Shown here: one piece after another, positions 30,066 through 41,343 of the stretch
Layout of the letters: each line of letters starts with the position of its first letter
How positions within the stretch are numbered: position 1 is the first letter of the stretch
Sequence record: AP019559
Direction: 5' to 3' (one strand)
Origin: Escherichia phage SP15
DNA length: 64,000 nt
Position numbers and translations under genes: made by a program
The notes under the pieces: generated by a model
The model's database searches: none
Told to the model about the DNA's origin: nothing
Seen by the model: the letters and a program-made list of their open reading frames with translations, nothing else

Positions 30066-30094
30066 TTGCTTTCAGGAAAAATTTTCTGTATAAT
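30066..30094 (+). promoter_or_regulatory. T5 P_N25-like early promoter
   Basis: AAATTTATTTGCTTTCAGGAAAATTTTTCTGTATAATAGATTCATAAATTTGAGAGAGGAG matches the P_N25 sequence as I recall it. Confidence 0.75.
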
Positions 30095-35354: not shown

Positions 35355-35372
35355 TCTGGTAAATTAAACCTA

Positions 35373-35403
35373 AGGGGAGGGGGCTATGCTCCTTCCCCTT
35401 TTT
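35373..35403 (+). terminator. rho-independent terminator after the HTH-repeat protein gene
   Basis: 8-bp stem GGGGAGGG/CCTTCCCC then TTTTT. Confidence 0.6.
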
Positions 35404-35436: not shown

Positions 35437-36909
35437 ATGACCTTGTTTAACGTGCAAGCTGTAGTGTTGAAGATGCTTCTAGCTTCCGAACAGAAGCAAA
35501 TAGCATTGGAAACATTCTCAAAACTGCATAAAGATCATTTTAATGACGCTTTCTCCTCAATTTACCAAGCCGTCCAGAATTATTATAAAAAATATAACAC
35601 AATGCCGTCCATTGACGCACTGATGCTTGAGGCTAATAGGAACGCCCGCCTTTCTCAAGCTCTAGTCGTTTTAGCTAACACTCAAATTCCAGAAGTTAGC
35701 ATGGAACAGGCACTTGAAGTCCTAGAAGCCGAGTATACACAGGATTTATTCCTGAAGCTTCTAGAAACAGACGTGCTTCAAGATTTAACAATGCTGGATC
35801 AGGGAGAAATTCTTAACCGAGTTGCCTCCCTTCACTTAAAATTAGAAGAGAAAGTAACGAATACTGGAAAAGTATTCAACGCAGATAACATGCGTATTTT
35901 CCAGAGAGAAGAAGATACCAAACTGAACTTAATCGCTCTTGGTATCTGTAATGAGTTCGACGCTCAAATTGGTTTAGCTCGCACAGAAACGTTACTGCTT
36001 GGTGGTTGGCGTGGTACTGGTAAATCCATTATCTGTTCAAACATACAGGTTCAGCAATATTTGAATGGGGATATTGCTCCATACTTCTCAATTGAGATGA
36101 AAGAACATGAAGTATTTAGACGTAATCTAGCCATGTTAGCTGGTGTATCCGCACTAGCAATGCGTAATAATACTCTAGAAGGCGCAGCTCTGTTGAGATT
36201 AGCCAGAACTAGAGCTAGGATGTTTAATGGTGGTGAAGAGCTTTTCGATAACTTCGTTAAACAGTACACAATGGCTAAGATGAGTGATTTCTACGATATG
36301 GAAAGTAAGCTAATAGAAGGGTATGAACTACATACTCCTATGATTATTGTTTATGATCCTGAGCTGTCTATTACAACAGTTGACGTAGAATTAAATAAAT
36401 TAGTTGCTAGATATGGGGATAAAGTTACAGTAGCTTTACTGGACTATATTAACCAAACCCGACTTCCAGATTCTAAAACCATTGATATGTATGACTGGAA
36501 AGAACAGATGGTTGTTAGCTCGTCTTTCAAATCTATCTGCCAGAAACATAACGTGGCTGGCGTAGCTCCTTACCAGATCGATCAAGATGGTAGAACACGT
36601 ATGTCAAAAGGGATTCTTGATTCCGCAGACATGGCTGCTAATCTTAATGCTGCAAAAGCTGATAATGGTCAAGGTGCTATTATGTTTGACTTCGTTAAGA
36701 CTCGTTCTTCTGATAGCGTGAAGTTTATGCCTAAAATGAACTGGGAAACCCTGCGGATGGATAATACTACCAACCTAGCAATGGAAGATATATCTCAAAT
36801 GGAAGCTGAGTTCGTTATCCCTATTGAGAAGGATAAGCCGGCTCAATCTAAACGTGCTAAGAAAGACAAAGCTGAAAATTCAACAGGTGAACAGGCCAGC
36901 GATATATGA
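35437..36909 (+). CDS. DnaB-like replicative helicase
   Basis: RecA-fold Walker A GGWRGTGKS and Walker B-like block; start uncertain (ATG 35437 or TTG 35443) because the track start lies in the upstream terminator hairpin. Confidence 0.65.
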   Translation: MTLFNVQAVVLKMLLASEQKQIALETFSKLHKDHFNDAFSSIYQAVQNYYKKYNTMPSIDALMLEANRNARLSQALVVLANTQIPEVSMEQALEVLEAEYTQDLFLKLLETDVLQDLTMLDQGEILNRVASLHLKLEEKVTNTGKVFNADNMRIFQREEDTKLNLIALGICNEFDAQIGLARTETLLLGGWRGTGKSIICSNIQVQQYLNGDIAPYFSIEMKEHEVFRRNLAMLAGVSALAMRNNTLEGAALLRLARTRARMFNGGEELFDNFVKQYTMAKMSDFYDMESKLIEGYELHTPMIIVYDPELSITTVDVELNKLVARYGDKVTVALLDYINQTRLPDSKTIDMYDWKEQMVVSSSFKSICQKHNVAGVAPYQIDQDGRTRMSKGILDSADMAANLNAAKADNGQGAIMFDFVKTRSSDSVKFMPKMNWETLRMDNTTNLAMEDISQMEAEFVIPIEKDKPAQSKRAKKDKAENSTGEQASDI

Positions 36910-37439
36910 TAACACAGGAAAGGCTAAAAGAGTTATTTGATTACTCCCCAGAAACTGGGGAGTTTACTAGAAAAGTATCTAGAGGTAATCAGAAAGCTGG
37001 TAGTATAATAACCAGAAAAGACTCTAACGGTTATATAATTATTGGTATAGATGGCAAGGGTTACAAAGCCCATCGGATGGCTTTTCTATTTATGGAAAAT
37101 ACATTGCCGGAAAAAGTAGACCATGTAAACAGAATACCTTTTGATAATAGGTGGTGTAATCTAAGAGACGCCACAGCTCAGGAAAATAGTAGAAATAAAA
37201 CCGCATGTAGTAAGTCTGGATATTTGGGAGTTGCTTGGGATATCGAAAAACAAAGATGGAGAGTTCAAGTAAGAGACTCTAATAGCACTCTTAAAAATGG
37301 TGGCAGATTTAAGTATGAAGAGCTAGAGCTAGCTGTAAATTCAGCAAATATATTAAGGACTAAGTTACATGGAGAACGTGCTGTTATAGAAATTTTTGAT
37401 ACATCCAATTATCCTTCACTGGAGGAGTTAAATTCATGA
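36906..37439 (+). CDS. HNH homing endonuclease (HNH_3 plus AP2-like domain)
   Basis: YKAHRMAFLFMENTLPEKVDHVNRIPFDNRWCNLR; paralogous to 26062..26514. Confidence 0.65.
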   Translation: MITQERLKELFDYSPETGEFTRKVSRGNQKAGSIITRKDSNGYIIIGIDGKGYKAHRMAFLFMENTLPEKVDHVNRIPFDNRWCNLRDATAQENSRNKTACSKSGYLGVAWDIEKQRWRVQVRDSNSTLKNGGRFKYEELELAVNSANILRTKLHGERAVIEIFDTSNYPSLEELNS

Positions 37440-38326
37440 GTCGAATAACAGAATTACTTGATCTTAAGGGAATTGAGTATAAAGATACTGGTGGAGATAT
37501 TTTAATCTGTTGTCTCAATCCAGATCATGACGATAAACACCCAAGTTTGCGTATTGACCCTGAAACAGGTATTATGCACTGCTTGAGTTGTGGCTTCGGT
37601 AAAGGTATACCGAGCATTTACCATTATTTTAATGAGACTCAGTACCGACAGTCCCCAAGGCTATCACAAGTACGTAAAAAGATTTCAGAGATTAGGAATG
37701 GATCAACGAATCTTGCAATTCCTGAATCTGCTTACCTTTTTGAAGGTGATTTCCGAGGTATAAGTTCTAAGACCTTGAAGAAATATTTTGCTTTCCAACA
37801 CCAAGCAGACTGGGAAGGCAGAATCGTATTCCCAATCACAGATGCTGTTGGACGCAATATCCTATTTTTGGGTCGTTCTATAAACAGTTCTGCCCCTCCT
37901 AAATACTTAGTAAAACCAAAACAAGTTTCACCGCCAATTTTTCCTGTACGATATAATACTCCAGTTCTTATTCTAGTTGAAGGCATCTTTGATATGCTGA
38001 ACCTAGAGGATAATGGTATAGACTACGCTTCTTGCTGCTTTGGTACACATCAGTTTACTTCGGATAACATTGCAGATAAGTTCAGTCCTTATATTATTGC
38101 CGGTGTAAAAGTTGTTGTTATCTTACTAGATAATGATGCTTCTGGTAATAAAGCTGCACAAGCATTGGCCAAGCTAATTCGTACAAAAACGCGTTTAACA
38201 CCTGTAGTTGCTAACTTTCTTCTGCCTGAAGGTAAAGACCCGGGTGACTTAAATAAAGAAGAGATTGATATGTTAGCAAAACGTATTGAAATTTTAGTTG
38301 CTGAATCGCTTAAAGATTTGGTATAA
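37436..38326 (+). CDS. DNA primase (Zn-ribbon plus Toprim)
   Basis: CCLNPDHDDKHPSL...CLSCGFGKG Zn-binding; Toprim LILVEGIFDML...LLDNDASGNKAA. Confidence 0.8.
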   Translation: MSRITELLDLKGIEYKDTGGDILICCLNPDHDDKHPSLRIDPETGIMHCLSCGFGKGIPSIYHYFNETQYRQSPRLSQVRKKISEIRNGSTNLAIPESAYLFEGDFRGISSKTLKKYFAFQHQADWEGRIVFPITDAVGRNILFLGRSINSSAPPKYLVKPKQVSPPIFPVRYNTPVLILVEGIFDMLNLEDNGIDYASCCFGTHQFTSDNIADKFSPYIIAGVKVVVILLDNDASGNKAAQALAKLIRTKTRLTPVVANFLLPEGKDPGDLNKEEIDMLAKRIEILVAESLKDLV

Positions 38327-38352
38327 TAGTCCTAAATAACTGAGGAGCTACT

Positions 38353-38682
38353 ATGGAATATGTATATATTTACGAGGATGTTCCAGTATACGATAGTATA
38401 ACACACGAAGAGGTTAAACTAGAGCTGTTTACAGTACTAGAGTCCCTTAATAAACGGAAGGATTTTCATTTATTTGGTGATCCTAAATTACCTGCATCTT
38501 ATATTTTCTTTAAAGTAAAAGATACAGGTCAAGAGGTGTATCTAACTTATGATTGGGCTGTTGTAGAAAATACTGAGCAATCTATGAAAGTGTTAGGTGC
38601 TTTTCTGCGTATAGTTGAAGAATTTCAGGCACTAGAAAAGCAGCGCAATGAAATGCGTAAATTACTACATACCTATAAATAG
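38353..38682 (+). CDS. hypothetical protein
   Basis: 109-aa ORF. Confidence 0.5.
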   Translation: MEYVYIYEDVPVYDSITHEEVKLELFTVLESLNKRKDFHLFGDPKLPASYIFFKVKDTGQEVYLTYDWAVVENTEQSMKVLGAFLRIVEEFQALEKQRNEMRKLLHTYK

Positions 38683-38685
38683 TAT

Positions 38686-38714
38686 TTGCTATTATCCCAA
38701 TATTTTGATATAAT
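38686..38714 (+). promoter_or_regulatory. T5-type early promoter for DNA polymerase gene
   Basis: TTGCTA-17 nt-TATAAT. Confidence 0.55.
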
Positions 38715-38717
38715 ATA

Positions 38718-38762
38718 TTGGTAAGTTAGAGAAGAAACACTGAAGTTATACTTACTTACCAA
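38718..38762 (+). promoter_or_regulatory. 5' UTR stem-loop immediately upstream of the DNA polymerase SD (candidate translational operator)
   Basis: Perfect 9-bp stem TTGGTAAGT/ACTTACCAA, 27-nt loop, ends 1 nt before AGAGGAG and the TTG start. Confidence 0.45.
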
Positions 38763-38775
38763 GAGGAGATTAAAT

Positions 38776-41343
38776 TTGAAAATCGCAGTAGTTGATAAAG
38801 CCCTAAATAACACTCGTTATGATAAACATTTCCAGCTATACGGCGAGGAAGTTGATGTATTCCATATGTGTAACGAGAAGTTGTCCGGTCGTTTGCTCAA
38901 AAAGCATATTACTATCGGGACTCCGGAAAACCCATTTGACCCGAATGATTATGATTTTGTTATACTGGTAGGTGCCGAACCTTTCCTGTACTTTGCAGGT
39001 AAAAAAGGTATTGGTGATTATACCGGTAAACGTGTAGAGTATAATGGGTATGCTAACTGGATTGCGAGTATCAGCCCAGCCCAGTTACACTTTAAACCTG
39101 AAATGAAACCAGTTTTTGATGCAACAGTAGAGAATATCCACGATATTATCAATGGTCGTGAGAAGATTGCAAAAGCTGGTGATTACCGTCCTATTACTGA
39201 CCCTGATGAGGCAGAAGAATATATCAAGATGGTGTATAATATGGTTATCGGACCTGTCGCATTCGACTCCGAAACCTCAGCACTATACTGTCGAGATGGT
39301 TATCTGCTTGGTGTTTCTATTTCTCACCAAGAGTATCAGGGTGTATATATCGATTCTGATTGTCTCACAGAGGTTGCAGTATATTACCTCCAGAAAATTC
39401 TGGATAGTGAAAACCACACTATTGTTTTTCACAACTTGAAGTTTGATATGCACTTTTATAAGTACCATCTGGGACTTACTTTTGATAAAGCACATAAAGA
39501 ACGCAGGCTCCATGATACCATGTTGCAGCACTATGTTCTAGATGAACGTCGGGGTACTCATGGCTTGAAATCTCTAGCAATGAAGTATACCGATATGGGT
39601 GACTATGACTTCGAACTAGATAAGTTCAAAGATGATTACTGCAAAGCACATAAAATCAAGAAAGAAGATTTCACCTATGATTTAATTCCGTTTGATATTA
39701 TGTGGCCTTACGCTGCGAAAGATACAGATGCCACCATACGTTTGCACAACTTCTTCTTACCAAAAATTGAGAAGAATGAAAAACTTTGCAGTCTGTATTA
39801 CGATGTTTTGATGCCTGGTTGCGTATTCTTGCAACGTGTTGAAGATCGTGGTGTACCTATTTCTATTGATCGTTTAAAAGAAGCTCAATATCAGTTAACC
39901 CATAATCTGAATAAGGCCCGTGAGAAACTGTACACTTATCCAGAAGTTAAACAGCTAGAACAAGATCAGAATGAAGCATTTAACCCAAACTCTGTTAAGC
40001 AGCTACGTGTTCTTCTGTTTGATTACGTTGGCTTAACTCCAACAGGTAAACTGACGGATACTGGAGCAGATTCTACGGATGCAGAAGCTCTAAATGAACT
40101 GGCTACGCAGCATCCAATTGCTAAAACTCTGCTAGAGATTCGTAAGCTGACTAAGCTGATCTCTACTTATGTTGAGAAGATTCTACTGAGTATTGATGCA
40201 GATGGTTGCATTCGTACTGGTTTCCATGAACATATGACTACTTCTGGTCGTCTGAGTTCTTCTGGTAAACTGAACCTGCAACAGTTACCTCGTGATGAAT
40301 CTATTATCAAGGGTTGTGTAGTAGCTCCTCCGGGGTATCGTGTAATCGCATGGGACTTAACAACTGCGGAAGTTTATTATGCTGCTGTTCTATCTGGGGA
40401 TAGAAATATGCAACAAGTATTTATCAACATGAGAAATGAACCTGATAAATACCCTGACTTCCACTCTAACATCGCACACATGGTATTTAAGCTCCAATGC
40501 GAACCTCGTGATGTTAAAAAGTTATTCCCAGCTCTGCGTCAAGCAGCTAAAGCAATTACCTTTGGTATTTTGTATGGTTCTGGCCCAGCTAAAGTAGCTC
40601 ATTCTGTTAACGAAGCTCTTCTGGAGCAGGCTGCTAAGACAGGCGAACCGTTTGTAGAGTGTACTGTTGCAGATGCTAAAGAGTACATTGAAACTTACTT
40701 CGGTCAGTTCCCGCAGCTTAAGCGTTGGATTGATAAGTGCCACGATCAGATCAAGAATCATGGATTTATCTACAGTCACTTTGGTCGTAAACGTCGTCTG
40801 CATAATATCCACTCCGAAGACCGTGGTGTTCAGGGTGAAGAAATCCGTTCTGGATTTAACGCAATCATTCAGTCTGCTTCTTCTGATAGTCTCCTTTTAG
40901 GTGCTGTAGATGCAGATAATGAGATCATTTCTCTTGGCCTAGAACAAGAGATGAAGATTGTTATGCTGGTTCATGACTCCGTAGTTGCTATTGTTCGTGA
41001 AGACTTGATTGATCAATACAATGAAATCCTGATTCGTAATATTCAGAAAGACCGTGGTATCAGTATTCCTGGCTGTCCGATTGGTATTGATTCAGATTCT
41101 GAAGCTGGAGGTTCTCGTGACTATTCTTGCGGTAAGATGAAGAAACAGCACCCATCAATCGCTTGTATTGATGATGATGAATATACTCGTTATGTTAAAG
41201 AAATGCTACTTGATGCAGATTTCGAGTATAAGAAATTAGCTGCAATGGATAAAGAGCATCCAGATCATAGCAAGTACAAGGATGATAAGTTTATTGCTGT
41301 ATGTAAAGATCTGGATAACGTGAAAAGGATTCTCGGTGCTTAA
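38776..41343 (+). CDS. DNA polymerase, family A, with 3'-5' exonuclease domain
   Basis: Exo motif VAFDSETSALY, Pol A motifs; TTG start 38776 after AAGAGGAG. Confidence 0.9.
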   Translation: MKIAVVDKALNNTRYDKHFQLYGEEVDVFHMCNEKLSGRLLKKHITIGTPENPFDPNDYDFVILVGAEPFLYFAGKKGIGDYTGKRVEYNGYANWIASISPAQLHFKPEMKPVFDATVENIHDIINGREKIAKAGDYRPITDPDEAEEYIKMVYNMVIGPVAFDSETSALYCRDGYLLGVSISHQEYQGVYIDSDCLTEVAVYYLQKILDSENHTIVFHNLKFDMHFYKYHLGLTFDKAHKERRLHDTMLQHYVLDERRGTHGLKSLAMKYTDMGDYDFELDKFKDDYCKAHKIKKEDFTYDLIPFDIMWPYAAKDTDATIRLHNFFLPKIEKNEKLCSLYYDVLMPGCVFLQRVEDRGVPISIDRLKEAQYQLTHNLNKAREKLYTYPEVKQLEQDQNEAFNPNSVKQLRVLLFDYVGLTPTGKLTDTGADSTDAEALNELATQHPIAKTLLEIRKLTKLISTYVEKILLSIDADGCIRTGFHEHMTTSGRLSSSGKLNLQQLPRDESIIKGCVVAPPGYRVIAWDLTTAEVYYAAVLSGDRNMQQVFINMRNEPDKYPDFHSNIAHMVFKLQCEPRDVKKLFPALRQAAKAITFGILYGSGPAKVAHSVNEALLEQAAKTGEPFVECTVADAKEYIETYFGQFPQLKRWIDKCHDQIKNHGFIYSHFGRKRRLHNIHSEDRGVQGEEIRSGFNAIIQSASSDSLLLGAVDADNEIISLGLEQEMKIVMLVHDSVVAIVREDLIDQYNEILIRNIQKDRGISIPGCPIGIDSDSEAGGSRDYSCGKMKKQHPSIACIDDDEYTRYVKEMLLDADFEYKKLAAMDKEHPDHSKYKDDKFIAVCKDLDNVKRILGA

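Follow-up and report, generated by a model that had tools for sequence, protein, structure and literature searches.

The leader of the DNA polymerase gene (pol) of Escherichia phage SP15 carries a hairpin which is a conserved, single-copy RNA structure of the pol mRNA in enterobacterial T5-like phages. Three helices (P1, P1b and P2) and a hexaloop fill the space between the −10 hexamer with its ATATT motif and the Shine-Dalgarno (SD) sequence. We tentatively favour the possibility that this cis-acting stem-loop, located beside the ribosome-binding site, protects the 5′ end of the mRNA. The analysed window, that is, the whole stretch of 64,000 nucleotides (64 kb; AP019559), represents a T5-like phage genome, with the 1 kb around the hairpin being 98.9% identical to BF23 and the genes following the T5-like arrangement pri–(ORF109)–pol; no genes were found on the minus strand here.

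Hairpin architecture and conservation

The leader and the gene that follows it comprise the following features:

38718–38726, + strand: P1 5′ arm, TTGGTAAGT; core 38721–38726 paired in all lineages, outer 38718–38720 paired in some, with compensatory changes
38732–38734, + strand: P1b 5′ strand, AAG; pairs with 38751–38753 (RNAalifold consensus)
38736–38738, + strand: P2 5′ strand, AAC; pairs with 38745–38747 (covariation)
38739–38744, + strand: apical hexaloop, ACTGAA; G38742 and A38743 invariant
38745–38747, + strand: P2 3′ strand, GTT (covariation, RNAalifold consensus)
38751–38753, + strand: P1b 3′ strand, CTT (RNAalifold consensus)
38754–38762, + strand: P1 3′ arm, ACTTACCAA; U-A changed to U-G at 38726/38754 in 5 of 14 sequences
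38763–38768, + strand: Shine-Dalgarno sequence GAGGAG, directly 3′ of the stem; AGGAG or GGAG at the same place in all lineages
38776–41343, + strand: DNA polymerase gene, TTG start, 855 aa, family A with 3′–5′ exonuclease

A preliminary description of this DNA reported a stable, perfect 9-bp stem with a 27-nt loop, ending 1 nt before AGAGGAG and the TTG start codon of the polymerase gene. Both arms were found and are perfect 9-bp complements flanking a loop of 27 nt (38727–38753), and the TTG at 38776 indeed opens an open reading frame matching Pfam DNA_pol_A (2e-66) and DNA_pol_A_exo1, the closest PDB relatives of the product being Klenow and Taq. The adjacency to AGAGGAG also holds, but the exact gap is 0–1 nt, because A38762 is both the last base of the stem and the first A of AGAGGAG. 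Stability is where the description overreached: the hairpin is present, but the minimum free energy of the full stem is −10.7 kcal/mol, with z scores of only −1.12 (38715–38790) and −1.78 (38718–38778). Furthermore, perfect inverted repeats of at least 9 bp with loops of 3–40 nt are common (29 in the window versus 10.4 ± 2.9 in Markov-simulated sequence), so that the hairpin is not significant by itself in a single sequence.

What raises the hairpin above chance is its conservation with covariation across T5-like lineages, a check that the preliminary description had called for. We compared 14 leaders representing at least seven such lineages. Among these, 90% of the pair cells are paired, as opposed to 31–50% with slid partners, and the covariation score is 0.265, which none of 500 shuffles reached, compared to at most 0.067 for slid partners. 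For instance, the pair 38719/38761 is seen as U-A, C-G, A-U and G-U, and 38720/38760 as G-C and U-A. In P2, C-G is replaced by U-A in 6 of the 14 sequences, and the Pectobacterium phages have GCC/GGC, so that this 3-bp helix exists in three states (AAC/GUU, AAU/AUU and GCC/GGC) surrounding a loop with a conserved YGA. The Proteus phages carry G-C instead of A-U in P1b and a different stem, GTTGGAT/ATCCAAC, at the same place. Neither Erwinia/Pantoea/L259 nor Providencia retains intact outer pairs. Overall, it is the pairing rather than the sequence of the stem that is preserved; the inner loop additionally shows sequence conservation, its nucleotides being as well conserved as those of the stem. 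Conservation of the leader exceeds that of synonymous third positions in adjacent codons in three comparisons (98% versus 70%, 80% versus 61% and 78% versus 50%). Wherever the hairpin occurs, it lies directly against the SD. In more distant T5-like phages, the polymerase is homologous, N-terminal region included, but there is no hairpin, and in most of them pri and pol abut or overlap.

With a covariance model, a single copy was detected in the 64 kb, scoring 74 bits at 38716–38764 on the + strand. There was no second match in the window, and the minus strand yielded 18 bits which, together with the U-G wobbles, indicates that the pairing takes place in + strand RNA; a minus-strand function was rejected given this score and the lack of minus-strand genes. 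The Vibrio, Pectobacterium and marine leaders all escaped the model, and homology with these was judged by manual comparison only; matches of the degenerate pattern TATAAT-N6-GTAAGT-N24-34-CTTAC to viral contigs were mostly due to chance. No Rfam family matched at the gathering score, the best scores being 13.7–15.4 bits against thresholds of 65–100. Several other candidates were rejected as well. Nothing points to a regulon built on related hairpins or half-sites, with no second copy found by the model, a unique loop motif and no enrichment of the half-site GGTAAGT (8 versus 7.85 expected). An intrinsic terminator would require a U-tract after the stem, which is followed by GAGGAGAUU with no T-run, and no terminator-like sites were found in 38000–39500. 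For an RNase III site, the helix lacks sufficient length and is interrupted. Finally, a pseudoknot between ACUG of the apical loop and CAGU of codons 4–5 was dismissed, since the match is due to the conservation of the AVVD codons and is not maintained by covariation when the loop changes.

An early promoter overlapping the stem

Immediately upstream of the hairpin, and overlooked in the preliminary description, is what we recognize by sequence as the early promoter Ppol (TTGCTA-17-TGaTATAAT-ATATT). The relevant features are:

38298–38327, + strand: ancestral pol promoter copy, TTGCTG-18-TATAAT, at the 3′ end of the primase gene (comparison with T5)
38686–38691, + strand: −35 hexamer TTGCTA (BF23-type copy); TTGCTA-17-TATAAT, 10 of 12 matches; the BF23 record annotates a promoter at 66356..66436
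38706–38714, + strand: extended −10, TGaTATAAT (TATAAT at 38709–38714); a promoter is also annotated at this site in T5
38715–38719, + strand: ATATT discriminator, the last two bases of which are the first two of the P1 5′ arm
38720–38721, + strand: predicted transcription start; G38721 aligned to +1, G38720 as the alternative

The promoter is a strong one of the early sigma-70 class. Its end lies 4 nt upstream of the stem, and it displays all features of its T5 counterparts, namely, a TTGCT-type −35, a spacer of 17–18 nt, TATAAT and ATATT; homology to T5 starts at 38704. The sequence TATAATATATT occurs in 20 copies in the window versus 5.1 expected. In T5 infection, a promoter ‘Ppol’, matched to ours by name only, has been identified as an early promoter by primer extension, its transcripts vanishing in the ~10 min after their peak, and ATATT has been described as a discriminator typical of T5 early promoters (Klimuk et al., 2020; PMC7472727). 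The second promoter, at 38298–38327, now lies 5′ of ORF109, which is an insertion, and is a plausible source of read-through transcripts containing the full hairpin.

The promoter features of T5 in AY543070 by convention span −55 to +20, with TATAAT at positions 44–49, which places the +1 of Ppol at the G equivalent to 38721. Thus, transcription is predicted to start at G38721, inside the P1 5′ arm, and the part of P1 that is paired in every lineage appears to begin at this very nucleotide. Placement of the hairpin ‘in the 5′ UTR’, as originally proposed, is therefore only partly accurate, given that the aligned +1 falls within the 5′ arm. Such a start implies that the Ppol mRNA carries only a 5′-terminal stem of 6–7 bp, whereas the full 9-bp stem forms only in RNA begun further upstream, that is, in read-through transcripts. 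The promoter-initiated version has a predicted free energy of −4.9 to −9.1 kcal/mol, and the hairpin starting at G38721 is marginal (−4.9 kcal/mol, z +0.48). The predicted leaders of T5, Klebsiella, Eos, Erwinia/Pantoea, L260 and Providencia phages all have zero or one unpaired 5′ nucleotide; Pectobacterium phage DU_PP_V retains the SD-adjacent hairpin but is predicted to have ~7 unpaired 5′ nucleotides. We found neither a measured 5′ end nor a described hairpin for the T5 pol mRNA in the literature.

Possible roles of the leader hairpin

A start site within the 5′ arm offers a rationale that is different from, and simpler than, an operator, namely, a 5′-terminal stem-loop. Under this tentatively preferred explanation, the 5′ end of the Ppol mRNA would be base-paired and lead directly into the ribosome-binding site, with the SD remaining unpaired, as it is in the predicted minimum free energy structure. 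On Ppol transcripts, the hairpin would leave the enzymes of 5′-end-dependent decay (RppH, and RNase E at entry or during scanning) without a single-stranded 5′ end to act on, and the longer 9-bp form would serve as a barrier in read-through transcripts from upstream promoters. Both the lifetime of the pol mRNA and its translation yield would be affected, and no dedicated repressor would be needed. Several observations do not sit easily with a protective stem. A start at G38721 would leave the hairpin thermodynamically marginal, and the unpaired 5′ nucleotides predicted for DU_PP_V also speak against it, as does the in silico disruption of the stem in four transcript contexts, which produced no consistent change in predicted SD accessibility. 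Furthermore, the conserved apical P2 hairpin with its invariant GA exceeds what generic protection needs; the covarying outer pairs (38718–20/38760–62) lie upstream of +1 and are unexplained by the 5′-terminal form alone; and the rapid loss of Ppol transcripts reported for T5 infection (PMC7472727) indicates that these are not strikingly stable.

Some of these features would fit a translational operator, whereby the T5 polymerase itself or another early phage RNA-binding protein binds the hairpin and the SD and represses pol, with contact probably made through the conserved apical P2 loop. Such an operator is unlikely, even though the hairpin is single-copy, pol-specific and SD-abutting in every lineage that has it, the apical helix covaries in its three states around the YGA loop, the loop is as conserved as the stem, as expected of a recognition site, and autoregulation of the T4 DNA polymerase, for which binding and repression have been demonstrated, provides a precedent (PMC3014915). 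However, the SP15 enzyme belongs to family A and has no relationship to gp43; in T4/RB69, the operator hairpin is of another size and has another loop; the distant T5-like phages keep the homologous polymerase without the hairpin; and the conserved initial transcribed sequence common to T5 early promoters accounts for some of the loop conservation. We consider it quite improbable that the family A polymerase or another early T5 protein recognizes the conserved apical hairpin to repress pol translation. If it did, this would be a second, independently evolved RNA-level feedback control of a phage DNA polymerase and, with the stem embedded in the promoter, control would differ between promoter-initiated and read-through transcripts.

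Comparably unlikely is that the full 9-bp hairpin functions in read-through RNA, as a processing or insulation signal between pri (or ORF109) and pol. Read-through RNA is plausible, because the T5 annotation shows no terminator between the upstream promoters and pol; it would originate from PK28a/b in T5 and from the 38298–38327 promoter in the SP15 window. This explanation would account for the covariation of the outer pairs upstream of +1 and draws on the far greater stability of the full stem compared to the truncated one (−10.7 versus −4.9 kcal/mol), on the ~95% pairing of the arms in simulated read-through RNA, and on the position of the pri stop codon, which lies inside or directly 5′ of the −10 in all lineages without ORF109. 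The element might even descend from a promoter-overlapping terminator such as that of the Vibrio T5-like phages of the pVp-1 type, in which a 13-bp hairpin with a T-run occupies the same position directly after the −10. Nevertheless, the T5-type stem has no T-run and was not called as a terminator, its outer pairs are broken in some lineages (Erwinia/Pantoea/L259 and Providencia), it is too short for RNase III, and there is no known processing site at the hairpin.

A promoter-linked DNA feature is still less probable. In this case, conservation would reflect the initial transcribed and downstream region of the early promoter, with the repeat being a by-product or a DNA-binding site, and the 5′ arm with the 5′ half of the loop (GTAAGTTAGAGAAGAAAC) does resemble positions +1 to +20 of other T5 early promoters (ATAAATTTGAGAGAGGAG). 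Yet the 3′ arm, which has no promoter role, is conserved and covaries with the 5′ arm, and P2 covaries as well; G-U pairs occur on the + strand only, GGTAAGT is not enriched, the other early promoters in the window are not accompanied by such a hairpin, and some pol promoters of other lineages likewise occur without it. Finally, a chance inverted repeat without function, compatible with the ~10 perfect repeats of at least 9 bp expected per window and with folding z scores of only −1.1 to −1.8, is contradicted by covariation and conservation across lineages and is extremely unlikely.

Among model phages, T5 is a classic, and expression technology relies heavily on its early promoters. To our knowledge, post-transcriptional control in T5 is almost unexplored. 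The pol-specific leader structure is now defined, with clear boundaries, covarying pairs and variants in Eos, L260, Proteus and Pectobacterium phages, making it a concrete mutational target for studying how polymerase dosage is set. More generally, promoter-adjacent phage hairpins need to be read against the transcription start site, given that one and the same DNA specifies a hairpin that is strong in read-through RNA but weak and 5′-terminal in RNA initiated at the promoter.

Comparison with known systems

The layout resembles the T4/RB69 gp43 operator, as the preliminary description had suggested, in that a gene-specific hairpin in the polymerase mRNA leader is located just 5′ of the SD; the resemblance does not extend to hairpin size, loop or polymerase family. 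The T4/RB69 operator is a hairpin of 16–18 nt with an 8-nt loop containing UAAC (PMC3014915). In our analysis, the T4 sequence folds accordingly, into 5 bp closing a loop of 8 nt (AAUAACUC), spans 18 nt and ends 8 nt before the SD, whereas the SP15 hairpin spans 45 nt, consists of three helices with the hexaloop ACUGAA and ends 0–1 nt before the SD. No conserved UAAC was found in the hairpin. The T4 operator extends over the ribosome-binding site, and in SP15 the stem, ending at A38762, and the SD, GAGGAG from 38763, are adjacent. Unlike the T4 operator, the SP15 hairpin overlaps the promoter start site, and gp43 belongs to family B (pol alpha-like), whereas the SP15 polymerase is a Klenow-like member of family A. 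As far as can be judged from sequence comparison, every testable defining feature of a gp43-type operator appears to fail.

The promoter itself matches the T5 early cassettes (PN25, PK28a, P31A/B and others), sharing the TTGCT −35, the 17–18-nt spacer, TATAAT, ATATT and a related initial transcribed sequence. In these cassettes, the purine-rich stretch at +10 to +20 is the SD of a gene starting ~25 nt downstream; by contrast, in Ppol it is located in the hairpin loop, and the real SD follows ~35 nt later. The Vibrio pVp-1 group (L037–L040) likewise has a hairpin starting 3–5 nt after the −10 and upstream of pol, with the same GGTAA/TTACC core. However, its near-perfect 13-bp stem with a 4-nt loop and T-run, which scores only 12 bits with the covariance model, represents a canonical terminator.

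In the E. coli ompA-type 5′ UTR, 5′-terminal stem-loops stabilize the mRNA, and structures hinder scanning by RNase E. The SP15 leader differs from this type in the weakness of its truncated form (−4.9 kcal/mol) and in the conservation of its inner helices and loop beyond generic protective need. The two are alike in having 0–1 unpaired nucleotides at the predicted 5′ end, a ribosome-binding site close by and a stem that is free to vary as long as it remains paired, and the terminal position would hold, DU_PP_V with its ~7 predicted unpaired nucleotides apart, if +1 is G38720 or G38721, as in the PN25-type alignment.

The stem-loop and the polymerase gene

The gene order in the window is D5, D6 helicase, HNH endonuclease, primase, a 109-aa ORF (ORF109) and DNA polymerase (pol). 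Over the 1 kb surrounding the hairpin, sequence identity is 98.9% with Escherichia phage BF23 and 95-98% with many other T5-like phages. The nearest solved-structure relatives of the pol product are the Klenow fragment and Taq, which makes it a family A polymerase. T5, BF23 and Epseptimavirus begin pol with TTG, and phages of Klebsiella, Erwinia/Pantoea, Proteus and Pectobacterium, as well as Eos, begin it with ATG.

Features upstream of and including pol
38686-91, + strand: -35 TTGCTA of a near-consensus sigma-70 promoter, 17-nt spacer
38706-14, + strand: extended -10 TGaTATAAT, immediately upstream of the hairpin
38715-19, + strand: discriminator ATATT, directly after the -10
38718-38726, + strand: 5' arm of the outer stem P1, TTGGTAAGT, perfect complement of ACTTACCAA
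38754-38762, + strand: 3' arm of P1, ACTTACCAA, 27 nt separating the arms
38763-38768, + strand: Shine-Dalgarno (SD) GAGGAG, directly 3' of the stem; TTG start at 38776
38776..41343, + strand: pol ORF, TTG start, 855 aa, Pfam DNA_pol_A and DNA_pol_A_exo1

The perfect 9-bp stem with a 27-nt loop adjoining the SD and TTG of pol, as noted in the preliminary description, is indeed present. It was also called stable: the predicted RNA fold, the hairpin with two small helices inside it, has an energy of -10.7 kcal/mol, but relative to dinucleotide shuffles z reaches only -1.12 (38715-38790) or -1.78 (38718-38778). Given these scores, and 29 perfect inverted repeats of at least 9 bp (loops of 3-40 nt) in the window versus 10.4 +/- 2.9 in simulated sequence, the hairpin could be explained by chance when judged from the window sequence by itself. 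The element is single-copy within the 64-kb window according to a covariance model, and an Rfam search with it matched no family. A second perfect 9-bp inverted repeat, likewise with a 27-nt loop, lies inside ORF109 (38598-38606 / 38634-38642; TGCTTTTCT/AGAAAAGCA).

Further upstream, an HNH endonuclease ORF (36906..37439, Pfam HNH_3) separates the D6 helicase and primase genes, the same placement as hegJ in T5. At the D5-D6 boundary, a strong terminator-like hairpin (35372-35400, +; 13 bp with 8 G-C pairs, then TTTGCATTT) extends across the start codon of the D6 helicase gene (ATG, 35386), where the T5 record carries no terminator annotation; it could dampen read-through transcription or regulate how D6 is translated.

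An early promoter overlapping the stem-loop

Absent from the preliminary description was the sigma-70 promoter upstream of the hairpin. Placement in the 5' UTR holds only in part: the 5' arm overlaps the predicted start of the early promoter Ppol, so that the anatomy has to be corrected. The promoter is annotated at this site in both the BF23 and T5 GenBank records. According to Klimuk et al. (2020, PMC7472727), all known T5 early promoters have ATATT as their discriminator, and Ppol is early in infected cells, as detected by primer extension; we identify the window promoter with that Ppol, matched by name only.

The window contains 20 occurrences of TATAATATATT versus 5.1 expected, and 14 promoters of the ATATT early type, including PN25 at 30089. 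Early-type sites (TTGCT-17/18-TATAAT-ATATT, then (C/T)ATAAATTTGAGAG) are strongly over-represented; examples are 30089 + (matching the PN25 sequence of the T5 record), 13056 - (which we take to be P207), 43189 + and 43290 +. Their purine-rich +10..+20 region usually doubles as the SD of a gene starting ~25 nt downstream.

In the T5 record every promoter feature covers -55 to +20, and TATAAT occupies positions 44-49; aligned on this basis with promoters whose starts are known, the pol promoter has its predicted +1 at G38721. The 5' arm thus opens with two to three discriminator bases, which promoter-initiated RNA probably lacks. RNA beginning at G38720 folds at -9.1 kcal/mol and RNA beginning at G38721 at only -4.9 kcal/mol (z +0.48). 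The complete 9-bp stem would be confined to RNA begun upstream of the Ppol start. The T5 annotation has no terminator between PK28a/b and pol, and in the window the ancestral copy of the promoter, at the 3' end of the primase gene (38298-38327), would supply read-through RNA as well.

ORF109 (38353..38682, region 38327-38708) has no Pfam match, is present in only ~49 of ~530 T5-like records (the BF23 subgroup) and is flanked on each side by a TATAAT hexamer (38322-27 and 38709-14). This cassette was apparently inserted at, and thereby duplicated, the pol promoter; the second copy is the one meant by the BF23 record note 'promoter absent in T5'. In the T5, Eos, Klebsiella, Pantoea and Proteus loci, primase invariably stops on either the TGA of the extended -10 (TGAtataat) or a TAA within TATAAT; hence the promoter overlaps the primase CDS end in every lineage without ORF109.

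Vibrio pVp-1-type phages instead carry a canonical terminator at this site.

L037 1393-1464, also L038-L040: consensus-like promoter TTGCAA-17-TATAAT upstream of pol, then, 3 nt past the -10, a 13-bp hairpin and T-run

The aligned start site falls within the terminator 5' arm; upstream transcripts should terminate here, and promoter-initiated ones should lack the stem base.

Conservation and covariation across T5-like phages

Pol upstream regions were gathered from GenBank phages, metagenomes and IMG/VR. Tequintavirus and Epseptimavirus show little or no variation in the hairpin; in lineages further removed, the sequence is altered and the structure retained. Conservation in related phages, a check proposed at the outset, is thus borne out, with compensatory changes.

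Stems in other lineages, relative to T5/BF23
Phage Eos: TCTGTAAGT / GCTTACAGA; two compensatory pairs and one U-G
Metagenomic locus L260: TATGTAAG / CTTACATA; two compensatory pairs
Klebsiella phages: TTGGGTAAGT / GCTTACCTAA; G-U pairs
Erwinia/Pantoea phages and locus L259: 6-bp core retained; one outer C-U mismatch
Providencia phages: core retained; 2x2 internal loop
Proteus phages: GTTGGAT / ATCCAAC; different stem, same place, homologous loop

Across 14 aligned sequences, 90% of pair cells hold a pair, versus 31-50% with partners slid by 1-3 columns, and the covariation score is 0.265 versus at most 0.067 for slid partners; none of 500 shuffles reached the observed values. The RNAalifold consensus adds two inner helices, P1b (AAG/CUU, with A-U replaced by G-C in Proteus phages) and P2 (AAC/GUU, or AAU/AUU in six sequences); in Pectobacterium phages, GCC/GGC takes the place of P2 around a CUGAUA loop. 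U-G wobbles are restricted to the + strand and the covariance model scores 74 bits on that strand versus 18 on the other, which argues for a + strand RNA rather than a DNA palindrome. The leader is also more conserved than synonymous third positions of neighbouring pol codons: 98% versus 70% in Epseptimavirus, 80% versus 61% in Klebsiella phages and 78% versus 50% in Eos. In T5-like phages further away (marine), the primase gene and pol mostly abut or overlap, without a promoter; in others, a promoter is followed by a short leader that lacks structure. Taken together, the alignments indicate that the structure is real, selected and acts as + strand RNA, and confirm, on phylogenetic rather than thermodynamic grounds, that the hairpin is more than chance.

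Possible roles and comparison with the T4 operator

Three aspects of geometry are conserved: the universally paired P1 core begins at the base aligned with +1, the 3' arm terminates 0-3 nt ahead of the SD, and the SD is predicted to stay unpaired. Both the 5' arm and the 5' half of the loop are similar to the initial transcribed region that is conserved at other T5 early promoters, which explains part of their conservation; therefore, the conserved, co-varying 3' arm is the informative partner.

We tentatively favour a cis-acting stem-loop at the 5' end, which, beside the ribosome-binding site, would protect the transcript in cis, because this accounts for both the geometry and the freedom of stem sequence. 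By itself, such protection leaves the covarying pairs upstream of +1 and the conserved apical hairpin unexplained; for this reason we retain a role confined to read-through RNA and an operator bound by a protein, both rather unlikely and on a par. A role purely at the DNA level is improbable, fitting the covariation data poorly, and chance, which fits them poorly too, is barely credible.

The preliminary description had likened the layout to the operator through which T4 DNA polymerase autoregulates its translation, and had suggested an analogous mechanism. That operator comprises an 18-nt hairpin (16 nt in RB69) with UAAC in the loop, and its sequence reaches into the ribosome-binding site (PMC3014915); in agreement, the T4 gene 43 sequence, verified in ~500 T4-like genomes, folds into a 5-bp stem that closes an 8-nt loop and lies 8 nt upstream of the SD. 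The T5-type element has only the general layout in common with it and differs in the family of its polymerase, in the size of the hairpin and in the loop, ruling out membership of the T4 operator class, although it may still work in a similar way. We rate the element as a conserved leader stem-loop, a known kind of structure.
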